A stretch of DNA of 64,000 nt from a virus (lineage: Duplodnaviria; Caudoviricetes), in IMG/VR virus record IMGVR_UViG_3300027754_000037, one strand, 5' to 3'. Below the pieces are notes generated by a model. The model worked only from the letters and a program-made list of their open reading frames with translations. It did not search any database and was not told the DNA's origin. Position 1 is the stretch's first letter, and each line of letters begins with the position of its first letter. Both the position numbers and the translations under genes were made by a program. Positions 3,963-30,013 of this stretch are shown piece after piece.

Positions 3963-4541
3963 ATGAGCGTATTTACAGTAAAGTTAAACAACAGCACTCA
4001 AGGTGGCTTGGATATGAATCCCCAATCTTTGGGCCAGTTTACTACAAGCGTCCAGCGCACTATTTTCGTGACTGGACCAAAAAGAATTTATCGCAAACTT
4101 TTCGATGGCGAAACATTCACGGACTGCAATTACTGGAAGAAATTTGCGGTGCCTAATCTTCCCGCCGATCAAGCTTTCATCGAAGTAACTACCGATGATG
4201 GTTCCATTTACAGCGAAGTGGATGAAGAAAATAACTATCCTAAGGTCTATTCTTTGACCGTGGACGATGGATCGGATTTTGTCGATAATGTATGCGATAT
4301 TGTTGGAGATACAGGTTCCACAGCAAATTTTGTACAGATCAACTCCACCAATTCTTCTGGCGGCGATGTGAGAGTAAAACTCAACGGCATGACCGGAGCG
4401 ATTTTTGACCTCAAAGCTGGTGATACTCAAGTTTTCAACTATGGCGACCTTGCCGTAACCAAGTTGGCATTCGACAACTCCAGCGGAACCGATGCCGAAA
4501 TTCAAGTCATCGTATCCGTCAAGAGTTCCTGCCTTAGCTAA
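3963..4541 (+). CDS. Putative virion structural protein (beta-rich)
   Basis: 192 aa, AGGAG SD, late-like promoter, S/T/N/D/G-rich; N-terminal part similar to 50535..50768. Confidence 0.6.
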   Translation: MSVFTVKLNNSTQGGLDMNPQSLGQFTTSVQRTIFVTGPKRIYRKLFDGETFTDCNYWKKFAVPNLPADQAFIEVTTDDGSIYSEVDEENNYPKVYSLTVDDGSDFVDNVCDIVGDTGSTANFVQINSTNSSGGDVRVKLNGMTGAIFDLKAGDTQVFNYGDLAVTKLAFDNSSGTDAEIQVIVSVKSSCLS

Positions 4542-4559
4542 ATTAAAAATCAATTAAAG

Positions 4560-4590
4560 AAACCCAGCCTTTATTGGCTGGGTTTTTTAT
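4560..4590 (+). terminator. Rho-independent terminator
   Basis: AACCCAGCC-TTTATT-GGCTGGGTT followed by T-run. Confidence 0.85.
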
Positions 4591-4670
4591 TTTGTCGAGA
4601 AAAATAGCGCTATTTTTAATATTGTAGAACTAACTATATTGAATGTGGAGCAAGTATTTCAGGTGTAAAT

Positions 4671-4907
4671 TTGGCAAATTTAATCAGACCAAACAGCGTC
4701 AAAGTTGTGACTCAGGATGGTGAAGTTCAAGTAACTATTGCACTTGAACTTACTATCAACCTGAACGCAAACGGTCTTGATGTATCTGCAAATACACAAG
4801 ATACAAATTATGTCCCTACGGTCAAAAAACCAAAAGAGGACAAGGTTGAGTGGGAAATTCCAGATTTTAGCGCATTTCCCAAGGTGGATTTTGGGAAAAA
4901 AGAGTGA
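4671..4907 (+). CDS. Small hypothetical protein upstream of actin-like ATPase
   Basis: 78-aa ORF, TTG start, same strand and 44 bp before the actin gene. Confidence 0.65.
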   Translation: MANLIRPNSVKVVTQDGEVQVTIALELTINLNANGLDVSANTQDTNYVPTVKKPKEDKVEWEIPDFSAFPKVDFGKKE

Positions 4908-4951
4908 TGTGAAATGATTGGTATATACAGCATAAAAAAAGGAGAGTCCAA

Positions 4952-5956
4952 ATGTTAGGTTTCGATTGCGGGACTTACAACTTGGTTTGTTGTTCCAGAG
5001 ACAAAGAAAGAAATTTTTCCTACAAGAGGGAAGTCAATGCCTTCTTGGAGCTTCCTTTGGAAAACCGATTTGTTTTCAACATGATGAAAACCGCTGGTGT
5101 TCCTTTGATTGAAAGGGAAAAAGTAGCTTATGCCCTAGGTGAGGCGGCGGTTAATATGACCTACACCATGAGCGCACTCGAACTTAAGCGCCCTATGATT
5201 CACGGCTGTGTAAATCCCAAGGAAAAAGACGCTTTCCAGATCATGAGCATCATGATGCATAGTTTGATCGACAATGTCAAAAAAGACGGTGAAGTCCTAT
5301 ATTATTGCGTTCCATCCAACGCCATCAATCAAGACACAGACGCAGACTATCACCAAAGAATCCTCGATGCCATTTTCAAGGCGTATAGGAACGAGACTGG
5401 TTACAAGGTTGATGCGCATCCAATCAATGAAGCTCTTGCTTTGGTCTATGCAGAATTGGCTCAAAAAGCATTTACTGGAATCGCCATGTCATTTGGTGGT
5501 GGCATGATCAATGTCTGCTACGCCATGTATGGCAATCCTGCCTTTAAGTTTGCAATCGTGAATTCCGGCGACTGGATTGATCGTCAAGCTGCCAAGGCTA
5601 CTGGCGAAAGTATCAGCTTTATCAATAAAGAAAAAACAAAGATTGATCTTACAAAGCAACCTACAAACCTTGTTGAAAGAGCAATCCACACGCAATACAG
5701 GCTTATGATTGAACACACCGTGACTGGGCTCAAGCAAGGATTCTCAGATGTTACCAAGACCGTCAGAACTGACGCTCCAGTTGATGTCGTAATTGCAGGA
5801 GGCACAAGCTCTCCTAACGGTTTCGGAGAACTGTTTAGGGAGACAATTTCTCAGGCAGACCTACCAATCAAAATTGGCACAATCATTAAACCATCAGACC
5901 CTCTGTACTCTGTAAGCCGTGGGTGCCTTTTGGCAGCAGAAGCTGCTGTTGGATAA
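4952..5956 (+). CDS. Actin-fold ATPase (volactin/MreB/ParM superfamily)
   Basis: Phosphate-1 GFDCGT, connect INEALA, phosphate-2 SFGGGM, adenosine IAGGTS, C-terminal PLYSVSRG; GGAG SD. Confidence 0.9.
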   Translation: MLGFDCGTYNLVCCSRDKERNFSYKREVNAFLELPLENRFVFNMMKTAGVPLIEREKVAYALGEAAVNMTYTMSALELKRPMIHGCVNPKEKDAFQIMSIMMHSLIDNVKKDGEVLYYCVPSNAINQDTDADYHQRILDAIFKAYRNETGYKVDAHPINEALALVYAELAQKAFTGIAMSFGGGMINVCYAMYGNPAFKFAIVNSGDWIDRQAAKATGESISFINKEKTKIDLTKQPTNLVERAIHTQYRLMIEHTVTGLKQGFSDVTKTVRTDAPVDVVIAGGTSSPNGFGELFRETISQADLPIKIGTIIKPSDPLYSVSRGCLLAAEAAVG

Positions 5957-5978
5957 CACAAAGAAAGAAGGAAAAAGA

Positions 5979-6437
5979 ATGAAGTGTAATCAAAAAAGCG
6001 TCAGCGACCTAGGGGCTGCTGCATATCTTCTCATGCATGATATAAAAGTCACAGGGAGAAAAAGTAAAGAAATTTATTTTTTACTTAATGCAAATTGCAC
6101 TTCAGAACAGTTTGATCAATTGACTCTTGATTATCTTTCCAGCGAATTTCATAGATTTGATGCCTGCATCATGAGCCTCAAGAAAATCGGTGAATACTCC
6201 TTCCAAGCCAAAAATTTCAGGTTTGTAACCGATCTGGGAGCAGCAGCATATCTGCTCATGCACAAGTACAAAGTGGTTGGCAAAAGAGGTAAATCGATCT
6301 ATTTCGAGGTTGATAACACAGCTTCGGACAGGTTTGATGAGACCGCTCTTGAATACATTTCCAGCGATTTTCACCGTTTCGACTCGTGTCTGATGTCTTT
6401 GAAAAAGATTGGCGAATACATCAGCGAACAATATTGA
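5979..6437 (+). CDS. Tandem two-domain protein (DUF5659-like)
   Basis: Two copies of DLGAAAYLLMH...IYF...FD...Y.SS.FHRFD.C.MSLKKIGEY; likely start MKCNQK at 5979. Confidence 0.7.
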   Translation: MKCNQKSVSDLGAAAYLLMHDIKVTGRKSKEIYFLLNANCTSEQFDQLTLDYLSSEFHRFDACIMSLKKIGEYSFQAKNFRFVTDLGAAAYLLMHKYKVVGKRGKSIYFEVDNTASDRFDETALEYISSDFHRFDSCLMSLKKIGEYISEQY

Positions 6438-6468
6438 AAAAATCAATATATAATCACAAGGAGATTAT

Positions 6469-7950
6469 ATGTTGAGATTTAGAGATTATCGCAACAACTC
6501 GAGGGGCGTTGAGCTCTACGAGGCAGAAGTCGCTTCTGATCCGGCAATAAATGCAGCAATTGAAAAAATTGTTGATGACTGGATCGGTGAATTAAAGAGC
6601 GAACTTCTAAGTGGAGAAGGACTTAAAACACCCGGATTGTGGGATCGTTTCAAAAATTCTCTTGCCAATTTCTGGCATGGTGCCTATAGCGACAAAAATC
6701 CCTACCGTCATAGGAATATGTACGGCAATCTCGGTGCAACTACGGAATCTGTTGACAATAGGCTGTCTCTGGATGAATATAAAATTCTAAGAGAATGCTG
6801 TGATCTGCTCGAAGAGGAAGTCAAAACAGCAGCGCCAGCAACAGACCAGAATTCAAAGCTGAAGCTTGTTCAGATCATTAACAAACACGCCAAAAACTTG
6901 AAAGACAGATTGATCAAGGTTTTGACGGGAGCATATGTTCCTGCTCTAAAAAAATTCCATATGCCTTCTTTGAGCTCCTTCCCCCGAAAGATAGAACCCA
7001 TCACTCCTCCCTCAGATACAGTAGACCCAAGCGCAAAGCCCGACACAGAGGTAGAAAAAGAACCTACTGAAGAACCAAAAGAATTTAGTTACACCGAACC
7101 ACCAACCCAAGGAATTGCATGGGCTTCTTTAAATGCTCGTCAAAAAATGGCTTGGAATAAATATGGTGGTGGTGCAGTATCAAGAAGTGAACGCCATAAA
7201 GGAAAATTCCCGTTGCAAGGAAGATTCCCGTTGCCTTGGATTCTTCGTCTAGGAGATCCTAGAAAAGATATGCTTTCTTTGAATACTTCAAGATCGCTTA
7301 TTCGAGATAAGAGACTCGAACTCGATTCGGATTTGATTAACTCCAAAGAAAAACTAGAATCTCGTGTTGAACATTCCAAGACTATTTTTGCAAATAGGAA
7401 GAAGCGTTCTGCCAAGCCAGATGCAGAAATGCCTTCAGAGCCACTTGCTGACACGCCCTCTCCAGAAAACAAAAAGCGTAAACAGCCTCGTCCAGATGTT
7501 GAAACCCCATCTTCCGATGCTGAAAAAATATCTGCTGATTTAGGTCGCCCAGAAGACTCAGAATCAGAAGCTCCCGATGTTGCTACGACTTCTGATTTCA
7601 GAGATGAATCTGAAGAGACCGAAGAAGATAAAGCAACAAATACGCTAAATCGTCTTGTAACCGACTGGTCTGTTGAAGAAGAAAGAAAAAAATTAATCGA
7701 GACTGCAAGAAAAATGAATCTTGACAATTTAAAGGATGAAATAATTAAAATGCTTCAAGCCCATGTTGATGCAGAGCCAGAAGGCGACAGTAAAACTTAT
7801 CATCAAAATGAATTAGATAAAGTAAAAGTACAAAATATTGGAAAAATTGAGGAATTAGACAAGACAGCACGCCTTCTTCTTGGCATTCTGCCTACTTTTG
7901 AAGCCAGAAAGTATTTTGTCAATAAATTCAGACAATTAGTTCATGGCTGA
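6469..7950 (+). CDS. Hypothetical, possible internal virion protein
   Basis: 493 aa, AAGGAG SD, N-terminus MLRFRDY, GLWDRFK motif, P/E/D-rich linkers. Confidence 0.7.
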   Translation: MLRFRDYRNNSRGVELYEAEVASDPAINAAIEKIVDDWIGELKSELLSGEGLKTPGLWDRFKNSLANFWHGAYSDKNPYRHRNMYGNLGATTESVDNRLSLDEYKILRECCDLLEEEVKTAAPATDQNSKLKLVQIINKHAKNLKDRLIKVLTGAYVPALKKFHMPSLSSFPRKIEPITPPSDTVDPSAKPDTEVEKEPTEEPKEFSYTEPPTQGIAWASLNARQKMAWNKYGGGAVSRSERHKGKFPLQGRFPLPWILRLGDPRKDMLSLNTSRSLIRDKRLELDSDLINSKEKLESRVEHSKTIFANRKKRSAKPDAEMPSEPLADTPSPENKKRKQPRPDVETPSSDAEKISADLGRPEDSESEAPDVATTSDFRDESEETEEDKATNTLNRLVTDWSVEEERKKLIETARKMNLDNLKDEIIKMLQAHVDAEPEGDSKTYHQNELDKVKVQNIGKIEELDKTARLLLGILPTFEARKYFVNKFRQLVHG

Positions 7951-8351
7951 TTTTTTTGAAGCATTTTCCCCATGTTTTGCTGTGCCTGCTTTTGTAAAGC
8001 AGCAAGCATGGAAGGATCAACAAACTGCATCGGTGGTTGCGCTGCTGGAGCAGGAGCTTGTTGAGGAGCCTTCTTCACCTCTTCAATAATTTTCTGGTAA
8101 TTAGGATCATCTTCAGTAATCATTTGTTCTTCTACGATTCCAACAATGTATTGCATGGAATAAAAGTTTTTACAATTTGTTAAGTGATGTTTCGTGAAAA
8201 CACCATCTTGGTCAATTGCTTCAACAATTCCTGTGAAGAACTCAGCAAATTGTTGGTCAGGAAAACCTCCCTTGTTAACGCCAACCGTTAATATTGTGCA
8301 AATTTTACCCACAAATGTGCTACGAAGATTTTCCAATGATGAAGAAAGCAT
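7941..8351 (-). CDS. Hypothetical protein
   Basis: 136 aa, Q/P/A-rich C-terminus, GAGG SD. Confidence 0.7.
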   Translation of the reverse strand: MLSSSLENLRSTFVGKICTILTVGVNKGGFPDQQFAEFFTGIVEAIDQDGVFTKHHLTNCKNFYSMQYIVGIVEEQMITEDDPNYQKIIEEVKKAPQQAPAPAAQPPMQFVDPSMLAALQKQAQQNMGKMLQKNQP

Positions 8352-8398
8352 TTTATACCTCGGGACATAAATATTGAGTCATTTTAAAGGAGCGATGG

Positions 8399-8614
8399 AT
8401 GTCTAGCAATTATAGTGAAGTTGCGCCTCCCGGTTGGAGCGGTACTGTCAAGGCCATGAAAAAAAATAAAGAGATCGATAATCCCTACGCTCTCGCATGG
8501 TACATGAAGAACAAAGGCTACAAGCACCATCACAAACCAGAGAAGAAGAAAAAAGACGAGAGCGTTTTTCAGCACAAGTCTTTCATCGAATGGATTAGCG
8601 CCAAATATCGCTGA
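8399..8614 (+). CDS. Small basic hypothetical protein
   Basis: 71 aa, AAGGAG SD, CATAAATA at 8366..8373; NPYALAWYM motif. Confidence 0.7.
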   Translation: MSSNYSEVAPPGWSGTVKAMKKNKEIDNPYALAWYMKNKGYKHHHKPEKKKKDESVFQHKSFIEWISAKYR

Positions 8615-11384: not shown

Positions 11385-11415
11385 ATAAGCCCCAAAAATT
11401 AACTATAATTTATGT

Positions 11416-11883
11416 ATGTCTAAGGAAAAAAGAATCATGCCCACACTCACGGTTTGTCACTATTTGTATTTGACTCGTGAACAAAGATATGCGCTGCATG
11501 AAGGGCAGGAGCTTGAAGTCACAGGCATCACAGTTCCTGTCTGGTTTCATAAAGGAAACACCTCAGAACCCGCTCAGGAAATTTTCTGCAAATACAAGCT
11601 CACAAATGACAGACAAGGCACACGAGTTCTCAATAATGCCGAAGGCTATGAAATCAATATGCCTTCAGTAGAAGTTAAAAGCGAAGATATTGATTCTGAA
11701 CTAATTAAAAGCGTTCAAAACAAGCTAGGAACAACCGAAAGGCTGCTGGACCAAGAGGATGGTGGACTGGAATGGTGTGAATTTAAATTTTTTCAAAAAA
11801 TGCAAATCGAAAACAAACAATACTATAACATTCATTTCGTAGAAATTAAACCCTTGCAGATTTTAACCGACACTCTCGGTTAA
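11416..11883 (+). CDS. Hypothetical protein
   Basis: 155-aa ORF filling the space between divergent and convergent neighbours. Confidence 0.65.
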   Translation: MSKEKRIMPTLTVCHYLYLTREQRYALHEGQELEVTGITVPVWFHKGNTSEPAQEIFCKYKLTNDRQGTRVLNNAEGYEINMPSVEVKSEDIDSELIKSVQNKLGTTERLLDQEDGGLEWCEFKFFQKMQIENKQYYNIHFVEIKPLQILTDTLG

Positions 11884-26236: not shown

Positions 26237-29200
26237 ATGGCTCCGTTATGGTCTGATTTTTTCAAGCTTTTTTCCTACTCCAGCGAAGCCGATCCGCTCG
26301 CTCGCCGTAAAGATCCCCGTCAATTCAGTTCCGCAGGCATCAGCCAACCAGAAGCTATCGGCGCAGATATCAACAATCCGCAGAATGTAAGCGGAGGACT
26401 CAGCAGCTACCGCCAAACAAATGACATGATTGACACCACTACGCTGTCAAATCGTGCTATGCGTTATAAAGAGTATGAAAGACTTCGTAATGTTCCAGAA
26501 ATCGAAGCTGCCATGACCGTCTTTGCAGACGAATCTTGTGTTGCCGGTAACACTAAAATTGCCACTCCCTTTGGATTTATCACCATCAAGGAGCTCACAG
26601 AAAAAAGAGCCGACGAAAGATTTCTTGTTTATTGCTATGATTTTGAGAAAAAAGACTACACCTTGGGCTGGGCATACTCTCCACGAATCGTAAAGCGTGC
26701 CCCCACCATCACAGTCGTCCTCGATGATGGATCAACATTCACAGCCACAGAAGACCACCGTGTTCTGAAAAAAGACGGTACTTGGTGCGAAACAGGAGAC
26801 CTTGAAGTCGAAGATGAACTCATGCCCTTTTACCGTGTGAAAGCCAGCCAAAATCACACCAGACTGAGAACAGCACAATACCCCAGAATCTACACCAAAA
26901 ATAAAGGCTGGATTCACGAAAGACAATTTGTAGACGACTGGAGAACAGGCAAAATAACTCCAAAAATGCAAGCCGTAAATCTGGGATGTAGACTATACGC
27001 AGATGGACTTAAAACTGTACAAGTCGCTGAAAGACTTGGACACGATTGGAGAACAGTTGGAGAATGGCTCGCACGAGAGGGATTTACTACCAAGGAAATT
27101 AAAAGACTCAATCGATTTGAAAAAGAAAGAAGAATCATAGGCATCGAACCCGGACCAGTTCAGGATGTCTACGACCTCTCCGTCGAAAAACACATGTGCT
27201 TTGCCACCGATAGCGTCATTCTCCACAACTGCCAGAAAGACGAAAATGGCAATATTATCAAAATTACCACGGAAAACCAAGATATAAAAGATGAGATTGA
27301 TTTTCTGCTCATGAACCGCAAAATGCTCAACCTCAACAGAAATGCATGGGTTTGGTTCAAAAATCTCTGCATTTCAGGTGACTATTTTGTTGAACTCGTA
27401 ATCAATCCAGAAAATCCCAAAGAAGGCATATACAGAACCATGCCTCTCCCATGCGAAACAATGTATCGCATCGAAACAGTCAAAGGCAAAATTATTGAAT
27501 ATCAACAAAGCAAAGAAGGACCAGATTATCAAGCCATCGTGCGTGGCTCCGTAAACGATATGACCGATACAGAACTCAACCAAACAACAGCTATACGCTT
27601 TGCACCAAGCCAAATCGTTCACTTCCGAATCGGTGATGATCGCAAAACCTTCTATCCCTACGGCCAATCCCTAATCGAACCAGCCCGTGGACCAGCACAT
27701 AGTCTCAGAATGCTAGAAGATGCTATGGTTGTGTATCGACTTTGCCTTGTTGGCGATACAGTCATAAGTTTACAAAACGGAACAAAAAATATTCGTGATA
27801 TCAAGGTTGGCGACACAGTCCTATCCTACGATTGCGACGGAAAATTGATTCCAACCAAAGTCGTTTGTCATGTTAACAACGGAATTCAAAATGTTTTCTC
27901 AGTCAATAGCAAGCACATTGAAATCGTTGGAACAGCAACACATCCCTTACTCGTTAATCGTCAAGGCGTATTGCAATATGTCGATATTCAAGATTTGATT
28001 CCAAAAACCGACAAGCTCATTTGCGTTACAAGAAATGACAATGTATTGACGCAAATACCCAAGTCTACTAAAGAACCTTGGGCCAAACTTTCCTCAGAAA
28101 TGCGAACCGCATTTAGAAATGGAAATTATGAAAATATTTCCAAACTTCTCAAAAATTGCAAAGTAAAAGATAACAGAGCCAAACAGTTTTTGTATGCCGA
28201 AAGCAAAGCCTTGCCTATCAATTTAGCCAAAAATGTTTGCGATATTTTTGAACTCGATCACTCAAAACTCATCATCACTAAAAAAAGTCAAGTTTATTCT
28301 GAAAAAATCAATCTTCCAAAATTTGTTGATGAAGAATTTGCAAGATTGTTTGGATTCTTGATTGGGGATGGTTCCATTTCAAGAAAATTATGCAGAATTG
28401 TTTTTTCTGCTGGCGAAAAGCAAGAAGTCAATCAAAAGTATGCAGGCCTGCTGCAAAAGTATTTTGGTAAGGTATCATACAACCCAGATAAACGAGGAAA
28501 ATTTGGTAATTACTGCGTCTCATCCGCAAGAGGCGCTGAAATTTTCTTGGAATTGGGCTACATCCCCGGAGCAAAAAACAAAAGAATTCCACAATGGGTG
28601 TTTACATCCAACCCCGAAATTCGCAAAGCTTTTGTAGAAGGAATTAGTGATGCTCATGGTTGCCAAAGAACAACATTCAAGGGAACTTGGTTTTCCACGA
28701 TTGAAATTTGCAACAAAGAACTTGTGAAAGACATCAAAAGCGTTTGGGCATCAATCGGTCTTTCTTCTGGTAAAATTAAAGAAAGACAAAGAAAAGGTGG
28801 TCACGAAATCACCAAAAATAGTTTGATGAAATCTACCACATCACATTCCATAACAATAAGCGAAAAAGAATTGCCTCAGTATGAAAATGTTTGTAGCATC
28901 ACGCCCTGTGGTCAAGAAGAAGTTTATGACATCACGGTAGACAATGAACTACACAATTTCATAGCAAACGGTACACCTACCCATAACACACGGGCACCTG
29001 AAAGAAGGGTTTTTTATATTGATGTTGGCCAATTGCCTCCTTTCAAAGCTGAAGCTTTTATGGACCGCATCAAGGATCAATTCCGCAAAAGAAAAGTCAC
29101 TAGCAACAGCGGAAGTCCCGGAGCAAACCAAGTTGAAGAAAAATGGATGCCTCCAGCACAAGACGAAGACTACTGGTTGCCAATTCGTCCAAATAGCAAC

Positions 29201-30013
29201 ACAAGAATCGATACACTACCCGGTGCTGAAAATCTGGGAGAAATCGATGATGCAGTTTATTTCCGAAATAAACTCCTCACGGCTCTCAACTTTCCCAAGA
29301 ATTACTTCAACAATGAAGACCCCGGCGCTACAAGAATTACCCTCTCAGCACAAGATGTTAAATTTGCTCGCATGATCGAGAGACTTCAAAGCTACTTTGA
29401 AGACGGAATCATGGAAATAGCAGAAAGACACCTTCAACTCAGAGGATACCCAGAAGATAGCTACAAGGACCTCCGTATCAAAATGACCCCTCCAAGCGAT
29501 TGGAGAGAACTCTCAAGAGCAGAAGTTGTAAATGCCCGATACGGCAATGCCGGAACACTCAAAGGCAGTCAGTTAATGTCAGATTTTGACATCATGACAA
29601 AAATCCTCAAATATAACCAAGATGATGCCGACGAAATGCTGGCACGCCTCAAAATCCAAAAGCTTGAAGACCTCAAACTGCAAGTATTGGCCCAAAATCC
29701 ACAACTTCTGGGTGTTGGAATCCCAAGTGCCGAAGGCCAAGACCAAGAACTTGGTGCAGAAGCAGGTGGACCTAACTCTATGCCAGAACCCGGAGGCGAA
29801 GGAACTCCACCTGAAGGAGAACTTCCTCCTGAAGCACCGCCCGAGGGCTTGCCAGTACCATCCGAAGGACCGCCATCAGAAAAGGCTGGTACGGCAGAAC
29901 CAGTCAGCATCGCTGAACCCACAGATGATGATATCAAGAAATATGATCTGGAATTACAAGGTTTCGATATTGAATCCGACCTTGAAGACATCGACTTCAG
30001 CGTGAGGAGCTAA
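26237..30013 (+). CDS. gp20: Portal vertex protein (T4 gp20-like) with two inteins; about 612 aa after splicing
   Basis: EDAMVVYR-RAPERRVFYIDVG, EDYWLPIR, IDTLPGAENL..IDD..YFRNKL...L.FP, E.KFARMIERLQ. Confidence 0.95.
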   Translation: MAPLWSDFFKLFSYSSEADPLARRKDPRQFSSAGISQPEAIGADINNPQNVSGGLSSYRQTNDMIDTTTLSNRAMRYKEYERLRNVPEIEAAMTVFADESCVAGNTKIATPFGFITIKELTEKRADERFLVYCYDFEKKDYTLGWAYSPRIVKRAPTITVVLDDGSTFTATEDHRVLKKDGTWCETGDLEVEDELMPFYRVKASQNHTRLRTAQYPRIYTKNKGWIHERQFVDDWRTGKITPKMQAVNLGCRLYADGLKTVQVAERLGHDWRTVGEWLAREGFTTKEIKRLNRFEKERRIIGIEPGPVQDVYDLSVEKHMCFATDSVILHNCQKDENGNIIKITTENQDIKDEIDFLLMNRKMLNLNRNAWVWFKNLCISGDYFVELVINPENPKEGIYRTMPLPCETMYRIETVKGKIIEYQQSKEGPDYQAIVRGSVNDMTDTELNQTTAIRFAPSQIVHFRIGDDRKTFYPYGQSLIEPARGPAHSLRMLEDAMVVYRLCLVGDTVISLQNGTKNIRDIKVGDTVLSYDCDGKLIPTKVVCHVNNGIQNVFSVNSKHIEIVGTATHPLLVNRQGVLQYVDIQDLIPKTDKLICVTRNDNVLTQIPKSTKEPWAKLSSEMRTAFRNGNYENISKLLKNCKVKDNRAKQFLYAESKALPINLAKNVCDIFELDHSKLIITKKSQVYSEKINLPKFVDEEFARLFGFLIGDGSISRKLCRIVFSAGEKQEVNQKYAGLLQKYFGKVSYNPDKRGKFGNYCVSSARGAEIFLELGYIPGAKNKRIPQWVFTSNPEIRKAFVEGISDAHGCQRTTFKGTWFSTIEICNKELVKDIKSVWASIGLSSGKIKERQRKGGHEITKNSLMKSTTSHSITISEKELPQYENVCSITPCGQEEVYDITVDNELHNFIANGTPTHNTRAPERRVFYIDVGQLPPFKAEAFMDRIKDQFRKRKVTSNSGSPGANQVEEKWMPPAQDEDYWLPIRPNSNTRIDTLPGAENLGEIDDAVYFRNKLLTALNFPKNYFNNEDPGATRITLSAQDVKFARMIERLQSYFEDGIMEIAERHLQLRGYPEDSYKDLRIKMTPPSDWRELSRAEVVNARYGNAGTLKGSQLMSDFDIMTKILKYNQDDADEMLARLKIQKLEDLKLQVLAQNPQLLGVGIPSAEGQDQELGAEAGGPNSMPEPGGEGTPPEGELPPEAPPEGLPVPSEGPPSEKAGTAEPVSIAEPTDDDIKKYDLELQGFDIESDLEDIDFSVRS
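26537..27229 (+). mobile_element. Intein 1 (231 aa) in portal
   Basis: S|CVAGNTKI block A, T.DHRVL block B, VYDLSVE..H..F...VILHN|C; no LAGLIDADG. Confidence 0.92.
27743..28987 (+). mobile_element. Intein 2 (415 aa) with LAGLIDADG domain
   Basis: L|CLVGDT, TATHPLL, GFLIGDGS and EGISDAHG, VYDITV...HNFIANG..THN|T. Confidence 0.95.

Follow-up and report, generated by a model that had tools for sequence, protein, structure and literature searches.

The window described here is a stretch of 64,000 nucleotides from the viral record IMGVR_UViG_3300027754_000037 (Duplodnaviria; Caudoviricetes). Between positions 4671 and 6437 it carries a three-gene unit composed of p78, an actin-fold ATPase, and p152. 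Together with p493, the next gene, these form four co-directional open reading frames (ORFs) on the + strand, 3' of an intrinsic terminator. The central ORF is a member of the volactin family of actins, has an intact nucleotide site, and has a fold like that of polymerizing actins. The three genes are a conserved cassette and are co-conserved in related phages. A preliminary description, made from the sequence alone, had reported a complete actin-fold ATPase flanked by a 78-aa protein and a tandem two-domain protein, just downstream of a terminator. Each of these elements is present at the locus.

The actin-fold ATPase

The actin ORF (4952-5956, +) encodes 334 aa, and its ATG start codon is preceded by AAAGGAGAG. 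The product matches the Pfam family PF25216 (Volactin) with 216.9 bits (cut-off 35; E = 6e-64), and residues 2-329 align with positions 3-321 of the 321-position profile. No other Pfam family is matched at E <= 0.1, including MreB, ParM, FtsA, actin, Hsp70, sugar-kinase, and other ASKHA families. The earlier assignment to the volactin type rather than to MreB or ParM is thus upheld. The profile is specific, as Haloferax volcanii alone passes the cut-off among 14 control genomes, and it is matched by all 48 of 48 diverse relatives. PF06723, the profile of MreB, Mbl, and MamK, does not match the window protein at E <= 0.1 and gives sub-threshold or weak matches in 12 of the 48 relatives. A sequence search against all solved structures returned no chain at E <= 1 for this ORF, and PHROGs contain no family for the actin, p78, p152, or p493.

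The predicted structure of the actin has a predicted local distance difference test (pLDDT) of 95.7 and a predicted template modeling score (pTM) of 0.93. The nearest solved structures are the MamK filament (template modeling score, TM, 0.71), Mbl/MreB, the BeeR filament, and eukaryotic F-actin, with TM 0.6-0.7 and 14-19% identity; for MreB, Mbl, and MamK the range is 0.66-0.71. Sugar kinases and Hsp70 are not among the top solved-structure matches listed. A library of viral structures returned Hsp70 homologues and distant actin-like proteins, e.g., Gp506 of Bacillus phage G, with TM ~0.55-0.63. The preliminary description had named a grouping with non-polymerizing ASKHA enzymes as one of the outcomes that would speak against it; among solved structures, the fold groups with polymerizing actins.

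The nucleotide site is conserved throughout the family. In an alignment of 48 diverse members, D5, G7, E160, S180, G182, G184, D210, G283, and G284 are the conserved residues of the site. The phosphate-1 loop, GFDCGTYN (aa 3-10; 4958-4981, +), contains the invariant D5 and G7 and T8, which is conserved in at least 90% of members. The phosphate-2 loop, TGIAMSFGGGMINVC (aa 175-189; 5474-5518, +), contains the conserved S180, G182, and G184. A serine at this site had been noted before, and S180 is indeed invariant or nearly so. The adenosine-binding motif, VIAGGTSSPNGF (aa 280-291; 5789-5824, +), contains the invariant G283 and G284, and T285, G290, and F291 are present in at least 90% of members. 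The motifs quoted in the preliminary description are all found in the sequence. They include INEALALVYAEL (aa 158-169), SGDWIDRQAAKATG (aa 205-218), and PLYSVSRGC (aa 317-325), all in the actin ORF on the + strand.

The partner proteins p78 and p152

The upstream gene, p78 (4671-4907, +), begins at a TTG codon and encodes an acidic protein of 78 aa with an isoelectric point (pI) of 4.8. It has no match in Pfam, PHROGs, or the ESM Atlas. In an alignment of 40 sequences, the protein is made up of a beta-like N-terminal segment (LIKP..VKV.T.DGE.QV.I.LELNINLN), a variable linker rich in Lys and Glu, and a conserved C-terminal tail. The tail of the window protein, W-E-IPDF-x4-K-V-D-FGK (4851-4904, +), is a candidate actin-binding peptide. 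Across homologues it follows the near-invariant pattern W-x-IPDF...K-x-x-FGK. Within the 40 sequences, P64, F66, F74, and G75 are invariant, and D65, K71, and K76 are each conserved in at least 90%. Similar tails are also seen in three more distant lineages, where the rest of the upstream protein is different. The tail may resemble the C-terminal peptide of FtsZ that binds FtsA.

A complex of p78 and the actin was predicted with a score of 0.44, and the best of 3 controls scored 0.01. The p78-actin runs share at least 57% of contacts, and the pLDDT of the partner is at least 42. Of 80 solved complexes, 58 pass the mark of the complex-prediction tool, as do 2 of 110 mismatched pairs; only 7 of the solved complexes pass with scores of 0.60 or below, a range that also contains both of the passing mismatches. 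The model may therefore be taken as weak support that modestly raises the odds that the p78 tail docks on the actin.

The downstream gene, p152 (5979-6437, +), encodes a protein of 152 aa composed of two tandem domains. The repeats, at 5988-6197 and 6213-6422, are ~70 aa each and are 61% identical to each other. The ORF list starts this gene at 5919 (5919-6437); the true start is almost certainly the ATG at 5979, because every homologue begins MK.NQKSVSDLG there. The predicted structure has a pLDDT of 91.6, and each repeat has the order beta-alpha-beta-beta-alpha-alpha. Single-domain forms occur in five related loci (L063, L073, L079, L083, and L086).

By shape, a p152 repeat matches a DUF5659 cluster of viral proteins in the ESM Atlas (TM 0.71 by the hit; root-mean-square deviation 1.9 A over 65 aa), and a weak row in AFDB points to DUF5659 as well. 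The DUF5659 profile (PF18903) does not match the window p152 even at E <= 10, and it matches 1 of 36 homologues at E = 0.008. No mention of DUF5659 was found in the searched literature. Profile and fold searches gave no ribbon-helix-helix or helix-turn-helix match for p152, and the fold matches to solved structures were all weak. A second family, LidA_Long_CC, was matched by 32 of the 36 homologues, with a best value of 6e-9. On the window protein it scores 27.8 bits with the long ORF (cut-off 26.5) and 26.2 bits from the start at 5979. LidA is a coiled-coil effector of Legionella. The p152 model is an alpha/beta domain rather than a coiled coil, and the match is read as a chance or compositional likeness.

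Conservation of the three-gene unit

Of 80 related loci from IMG/VR, 76 contain p78 and 77 contain p152, with no change in order; the full arrangement p78 - actin - p152 is present in about 75. More distant relatives retain the same arrangement in full or in part. LR756511.1, a phage of 595 kb with an actin 64% identical to that of the window, encodes a 76-aa p78 homologue, the actin, an inserted ORF of 230 aa, and a single-domain p152 homologue. In L083 (actin 42% identical), an upstream protein of 73 aa is followed by the actin and then by a single-domain p152 homologue of 73 aa. This upstream protein has the p78-like N-terminal pattern and a Y-IPDE...F tail. The other neighbors in L083 are different and encode glycosyltransferase-9 (GT9), ribosomal protein S21, PhoH, and GyrB. 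In L087 (actin 41% identical) and L088 (39%), a small upstream protein has a similar tail, ...F...K-x-x-FG. The L087 protein also has an N-terminal transmembrane helix, which suggests that it is anchored in the membrane. Loss of co-conservation of the flanking genes had been set beforehand as a result that would count against the unit. The genes were found to stay together, also in the lineage with a different wider neighborhood.

The junction between the actin and p152 is variable in length. Several loci (e.g., L005, L011, L046, L076, and L086) carry an extra 1-3 kb of DNA between the actin and the p152 homologue, and the unit thus tolerates insertions at this point. In L086 the insertion is an ORF of 230 aa.

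Distribution and phylogeny of phage volactins

Homologues of the window actin are numerous. A word-indexed search gave more than 1,300 clusters at 90% identity, and the best 120 are all 74-100% identical to the window actin. An exhaustive search of representatives at 50% identity gave 901 clusters at E <= 1e-3 and 248 at E <= 1e-30. Neighbors in the ESM Atlas are Volactin clusters that are 92-96% viral and one cluster that is mostly bacterial. In the phage GenBank collection, homologues are found in two uncultured huge phages only and in no cultured phage. An identical actin is present on a 241-kb contig, and contigs of 428-673 kb carry close relatives. Completeness is estimated at 50-64% for three IMG/VR relatives (251-323 kb), and IMG/VR lists one relative as a provirus.

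A quick, midpoint-rooted tree of 97 representatives places the window actin in a clade of 12 members (SH-like approximate likelihood ratio test, SH-aLRT, 100), apart from the remaining 85. All six of the six sequences with a tail-bearing small gene upstream fall within this clade. The remaining 85 include forms with long N-terminal extensions and an acidic pair from a cellular metagenome-assembled genome (MAG).

The acidic pair is from the very acidic cellular genome GCA_964580675.1 (L081, 7939-10708) and is made up of two adjacent volactin paralogues of 381 and 517 aa. The N-terminus of the longer one is zinc-ribbon-like and of low complexity, and the pair adjoins PAS-GGDEF-EAL and GatCAB genes. 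Because this MAG carries two paralogues, the volactin family extends beyond haloarchaea and phages to bacteria-like genomes.

A search of prokaryote genomes with the window protein alone matched four MAG contigs, with assignments to Chloracidobacterium, Acidimicrobiaceae, Nitrosotalea, and Flavobacteriaceae. These taxa are unrelated and the contigs are read as mis-binned phage contigs, so none of them names a host.

The actin is under strong purifying selection. Over the 31 related loci that hold all of the genes compared, the actin and p152 have median identities of 74% and 72%, respectively, the highest values nearby. Medians are 53% for the primase, 55% for the PD-(D/E)XK nuclease, 55% for p192 (a structural-looking protein encoded upstream), 46% for p78, and 29% for p493.

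Four homologues of ~700 aa (P0121, P0128, P0132, and P0150) contain inteins with Hint and LAGLIDADG domains inside the phosphate-2 loop, after ~residue 180. One of the intein-bearing homologues is 67% identical to the window actin. Inteins are usually located in conserved sites of indispensable proteins. Their presence within an actin-like protein seems to be unusual.

Transcription signals and genomic context

The intrinsic terminator (4557-4588, +) has a 13-bp stem with 6 G-C pairs and a 6-nt loop and is followed by a T-run. The G+C-rich hairpin lies directly 3' of the preceding gene (3963-4541). From its sequence, the terminator closes that gene, and the actin unit is thus the start of a new transcription unit. 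A promoter-like box, ACTAACTATATT (4628-4640, +), is located ~30 nt 5' of p78. Upstream regions were compared by eye, and similar boxes (ACTAACTATAWT and variants) are seen at the same spot in many related loci. The string TAACTATAWT occurs 2 times in the window, where 0.17 occurrences are expected. Copies of the ACTATAWT type are also found at 11400-11409 (+) and 8409-8416 (-), just 5' of ORFs 11416-11883 and 8351-7941, respectively. These boxes may represent one putative class of promoter.

A perfect 18-bp palindrome, AAAAATAGCGCTATTTTT, lies at 4598-4615 between the terminator and p78. It is present in a single copy in the window and is not kept 5' of p78 in relatives. A string similar to it is located within the coding region of the p192 homologue in two loci (L050 and L052). 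No repeat array and no centromere-like repeats were found in a scan of positions 4400-8600, which covers the unit and its surroundings.

In a lake metatranscriptome library, two contigs of 151 nt (4663-4813 and 4794-4944) are 100% identical to the window and cover p78. The rest of the unit is without cover in the same library. DNA carry-over is possible, and the contigs therefore do not establish expression.

The gene directly 3' of p152 is p493 (6469-7950, +), which encodes a low-complexity protein of 493 aa rich in Lys, Glu, Pro, and Ser. It is syntenic, and its median identity applies to about one third of its length. It matches no family in Pfam or PHROGs, and its membership in the actin unit is doubtful.

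In most relatives (L001-L080), a glycosyltransferase-9-like gene lies directly 5' of p78, between the p192 and p78 homologues. This gene is absent from the window locus, where the terminator and the promoter-like box are in its place. It is also found in L086 (1748-2752) and L083 (5725-7788) and has a Cys-rich end, CGPC...C...KPCLTE.

The window belongs to a T4-type phage. It encodes a Gp23-type capsid protein (PF07068, 291.7 bits), a Gp20-type portal protein (PF07230, 224.5 bits), and a T4-type large terminase (PF03237, 40.6 bits), which bear out the earlier label of T4-like. A primase and a PD-(D/E)XK nuclease are encoded as well. The Gp20-family portal gene (26237-30013, +) encodes a precursor of 1258 aa that contains an intein with a LAGLIDADG homing endonuclease at approximately residues 500-917. 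The window stretch or near copies of it are found in runs of 13 studies, mostly labeled as freshwater or lake metagenomes.

Proposed function and alternative explanations

On balance, ORF 4952-5956 is likely to encode a functional filament-forming volactin that is made for the phage's own use, in a cassette with two dedicated partners. By sequence and by analogy with the characterized family member, related huge phages probably assemble actin filaments of their own within infected cells. ATP-driven filaments would organize the host interior during infection by a very large T4-type phage and could position replicating DNA or assembling particles. The C-terminal tail of p78 would dock onto the actin, and the N-terminal part of p78 would fasten the filament to something else. 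p152 would act on the polymer as a regulator, a bundler, a nucleator, or a cargo adaptor. In this role, the phage volactin would parallel the PhuZ tubulin spindle, with actin as the polymer, or AlpC/AlpA. The role of p152, the contact between p78 and the actin, and the cargo are all inferred.

Several observations weigh against this interpretation. Polymerization of the phage volactin is inferred from family membership and from the behavior of H. volcanii volactin. Ser180 stands where other actin families have Asp, a family-wide replacement that may affect hydrolysis. It is compatible with dynamic filaments, because H. volcanii volactin polymerizes and depolymerizes in living cells (PMC10869688). 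The predicted p78-actin complex is a weak pass, and according to the calibration most passes of this kind are false unless the contact is already likely. For p152, no convincing solved relative was found (Foldseek E > 0.03; best VIA-align Z 4.9), and the protein is neutral rather than basic, with a pI of 6.9; nothing thus points to DNA binding or to a specific activity. Most of the 80 related loci are from one collinear phage clade in which all neighboring genes are syntenic. Because the whole 12-kb neighborhood is collinear in this clade, the synteny across the 80 loci is weak evidence by itself, and the cassette argument rests mainly on a few distant lineages. In three more distant volactin contexts, L084, L085 (= LR745208.1), and L089, neither partner was found. 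A single-protein scan of prokaryote genomes found no host.

One alternative is segregation of the ParMRC or AlpAC type. The actin would push or pull phage genomes or an episomal prophage, and p152 would bind DNA as the adaptor between a centromere-like site and the filament tip. As in parM-parR, the actin gene is directly followed by that of a small conserved protein. AlpC of prophage CGP3 is co-transcribed with AlpA, an adaptor that couples the filaments to phage DNA (PMC4446434). The tandem domains of p152, and the single-domain and presumably dimerizing versions elsewhere, would suit a two-fold DNA site, and the relative classed as a provirus would be in keeping with an episomal prophage. 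Against this, the unit and its surroundings lack iterated or centromere-like repeats, and the lone palindrome at 4598-4615 is not shared with relatives. The pI of p152 and the lack of a ribbon-helix-helix or helix-turn-helix match do not favor an adaptor, the actin has no ParM-type Pfam match, and T4-type phages are typically lytic. We regard segregation as improbable.

A second alternative, which we find just as hard to favor, is that of a host-remodeling actin. The filaments would have no phage cargo and would alter the shape or size of the host or block its division, giving a huge phage room and time. The sole characterized member of the family, volactin of H. volcanii, is a cell-shape factor (PMC10869688). 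The L087 upstream partner joins an N-terminal transmembrane helix to a C-terminal tail similar to that of p78, although p78 itself is without a transmembrane segment. A possible resemblance of the p78 tail to the FtsA-binding peptide of FtsZ would fit an effect on division. Nothing in the window ties the unit to cell-wall or division genes.

It is very unlikely that the protein is a non-polymerizing actin-fold ATPase, chaperone-like or kinase-like, with flanking genes that are mere syntenic neighbors: the actin fold is common to Hsp70 and sugar kinases, the top matches in the viral structure library are Hsp70 homologues (TM ~0.6), and the synteny comes mostly from one collinear clade, but the sequence falls in no Hsp70, sugar-kinase, or other ASKHA family of Pfam, the best solved-structure matches are all cytomotive actins, the protein is of MreB/MamK size without a substrate-binding or lid domain, it is, for a phage protein, extremely conserved from end to end, and the partners recur where other neighbors differ (L083). 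All three alternatives are less well supported than a filament-forming volactin with two partners.

A more specific form of the filament proposal can be put forward, and we consider it less likely than not. Huge freshwater T4-type phages might possess a self-contained, tip-anchored actin cytoskeleton made up of a volactin polymer, a p78-type anchor, and a tandem DUF5659 protein. The p78 peptide W-x-IPDF...FGK would cap or tether the filament ends. The opposite end of p78 would form a beta-hairpin domain, replaced in a sister lineage by a transmembrane helix. p152 would bridge neighboring subunits as a nucleator or bundler.

Relation to known cytoskeletal systems

Volactin of H. volcanii (VolA, HVO_2015) forms dynamic filaments in vivo that span the cytoplasm and contact the membrane by their tips (PMC10869688). 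The phage actin shares the full-length PF25216 match and the same set of motifs, including the phosphate-2 Ser. It is ~30-35% identical to cellular-type members, and the phage sequences fall in a sub-clade of their own with strong support. The phage is of the T4 type, apparently of freshwater bacteria rather than of a haloarchaeon, and its two partner genes are undescribed for volactin.

AlpC is an actin-like ATPase encoded by prophage CGP3 of Corynebacterium glutamicum that, with a small partner, organizes viral replication in space (PMC4446434). The phage volactin is likewise a phage-encoded actin-like ATPase with a small partner. It is of a different actin family, and no sequence relation to AlpC was detected in searches that did not include AlpC itself. 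AlpA binds a defined DNA site 5' of its operon, whereas neither a site of this kind nor a DNA-binding fold turned up in the phage unit.

PhuZ is a tubulin polymer of very large phages that positions material inside the cell (PMC7950403). Both PhuZ and the phage volactin represent cytoskeletal polymers encoded by very large phages. PhuZ has a tubulin fold and is of the phiKZ-like lineage, whereas the protein described here has an actin fold, is from a T4-like phage, and has a predicted function. The tubulin family PF00091 was not matched in five related records (two complete volactin-bearing genomes and three fragments), a result to be read with the divergence of PhuZ-like proteins in mind. Because neither of the two complete volactin-bearing huge phage genomes has a tubulin match, the phage volactin may fill the niche that PhuZ tubulin occupies in other phages.

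ParM, MamK, and MreB have the same fold and size as the phage volactin. MamK and MreB are the nearest solved proteins, and the gene order of actin then small partner recalls parM-parR. The phage unit differs in that its actin has no MreB/MamK or ParM match in Pfam, centromere repeats are absent, and its partners fold differently.

Phage-built cytoskeletal polymers are already known in PhuZ and AlpC. The volactin family is defined in Pfam, and some members are annotated in IMG as "actin-like ATPase". No description of phage volactins was found in the searched literature, in which the volactin papers have no phage-related titles. Tubulin but not actin is mentioned in the survey of huge phages from which the two GenBank relatives come. 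What is new is a distinct actin family with novel partners, conserved across a large clade of huge phages.

Implications for phage biology

The cytoskeletons built by phages have so far been mainly the PhuZ tubulins of phiKZ-like jumbo phages and a single actin-like case, AlpC. Volactin has until now been characterized only as a haloarchaeal cell-shape protein. In a widespread clade of very large freshwater phages, the volactin gene is present in single copy and highly conserved, and the range of the family is widened to bacterial viruses and bacteria-like genomes. If the filaments are real, large T4-type phages would use actin to organize the infected cell. The 334-aa actin, an 18-residue peptide, and the 152-aa partner would then make up a tractable system in vitro, and two orphan protein families would acquire a role. 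If the tip-anchored cytoskeleton is correct, the PhuZ spindle would have its first counterpart built of actin, and DUF5659 and the p78 family would gain a first function, as actin-binding proteins of prokaryotic viruses.

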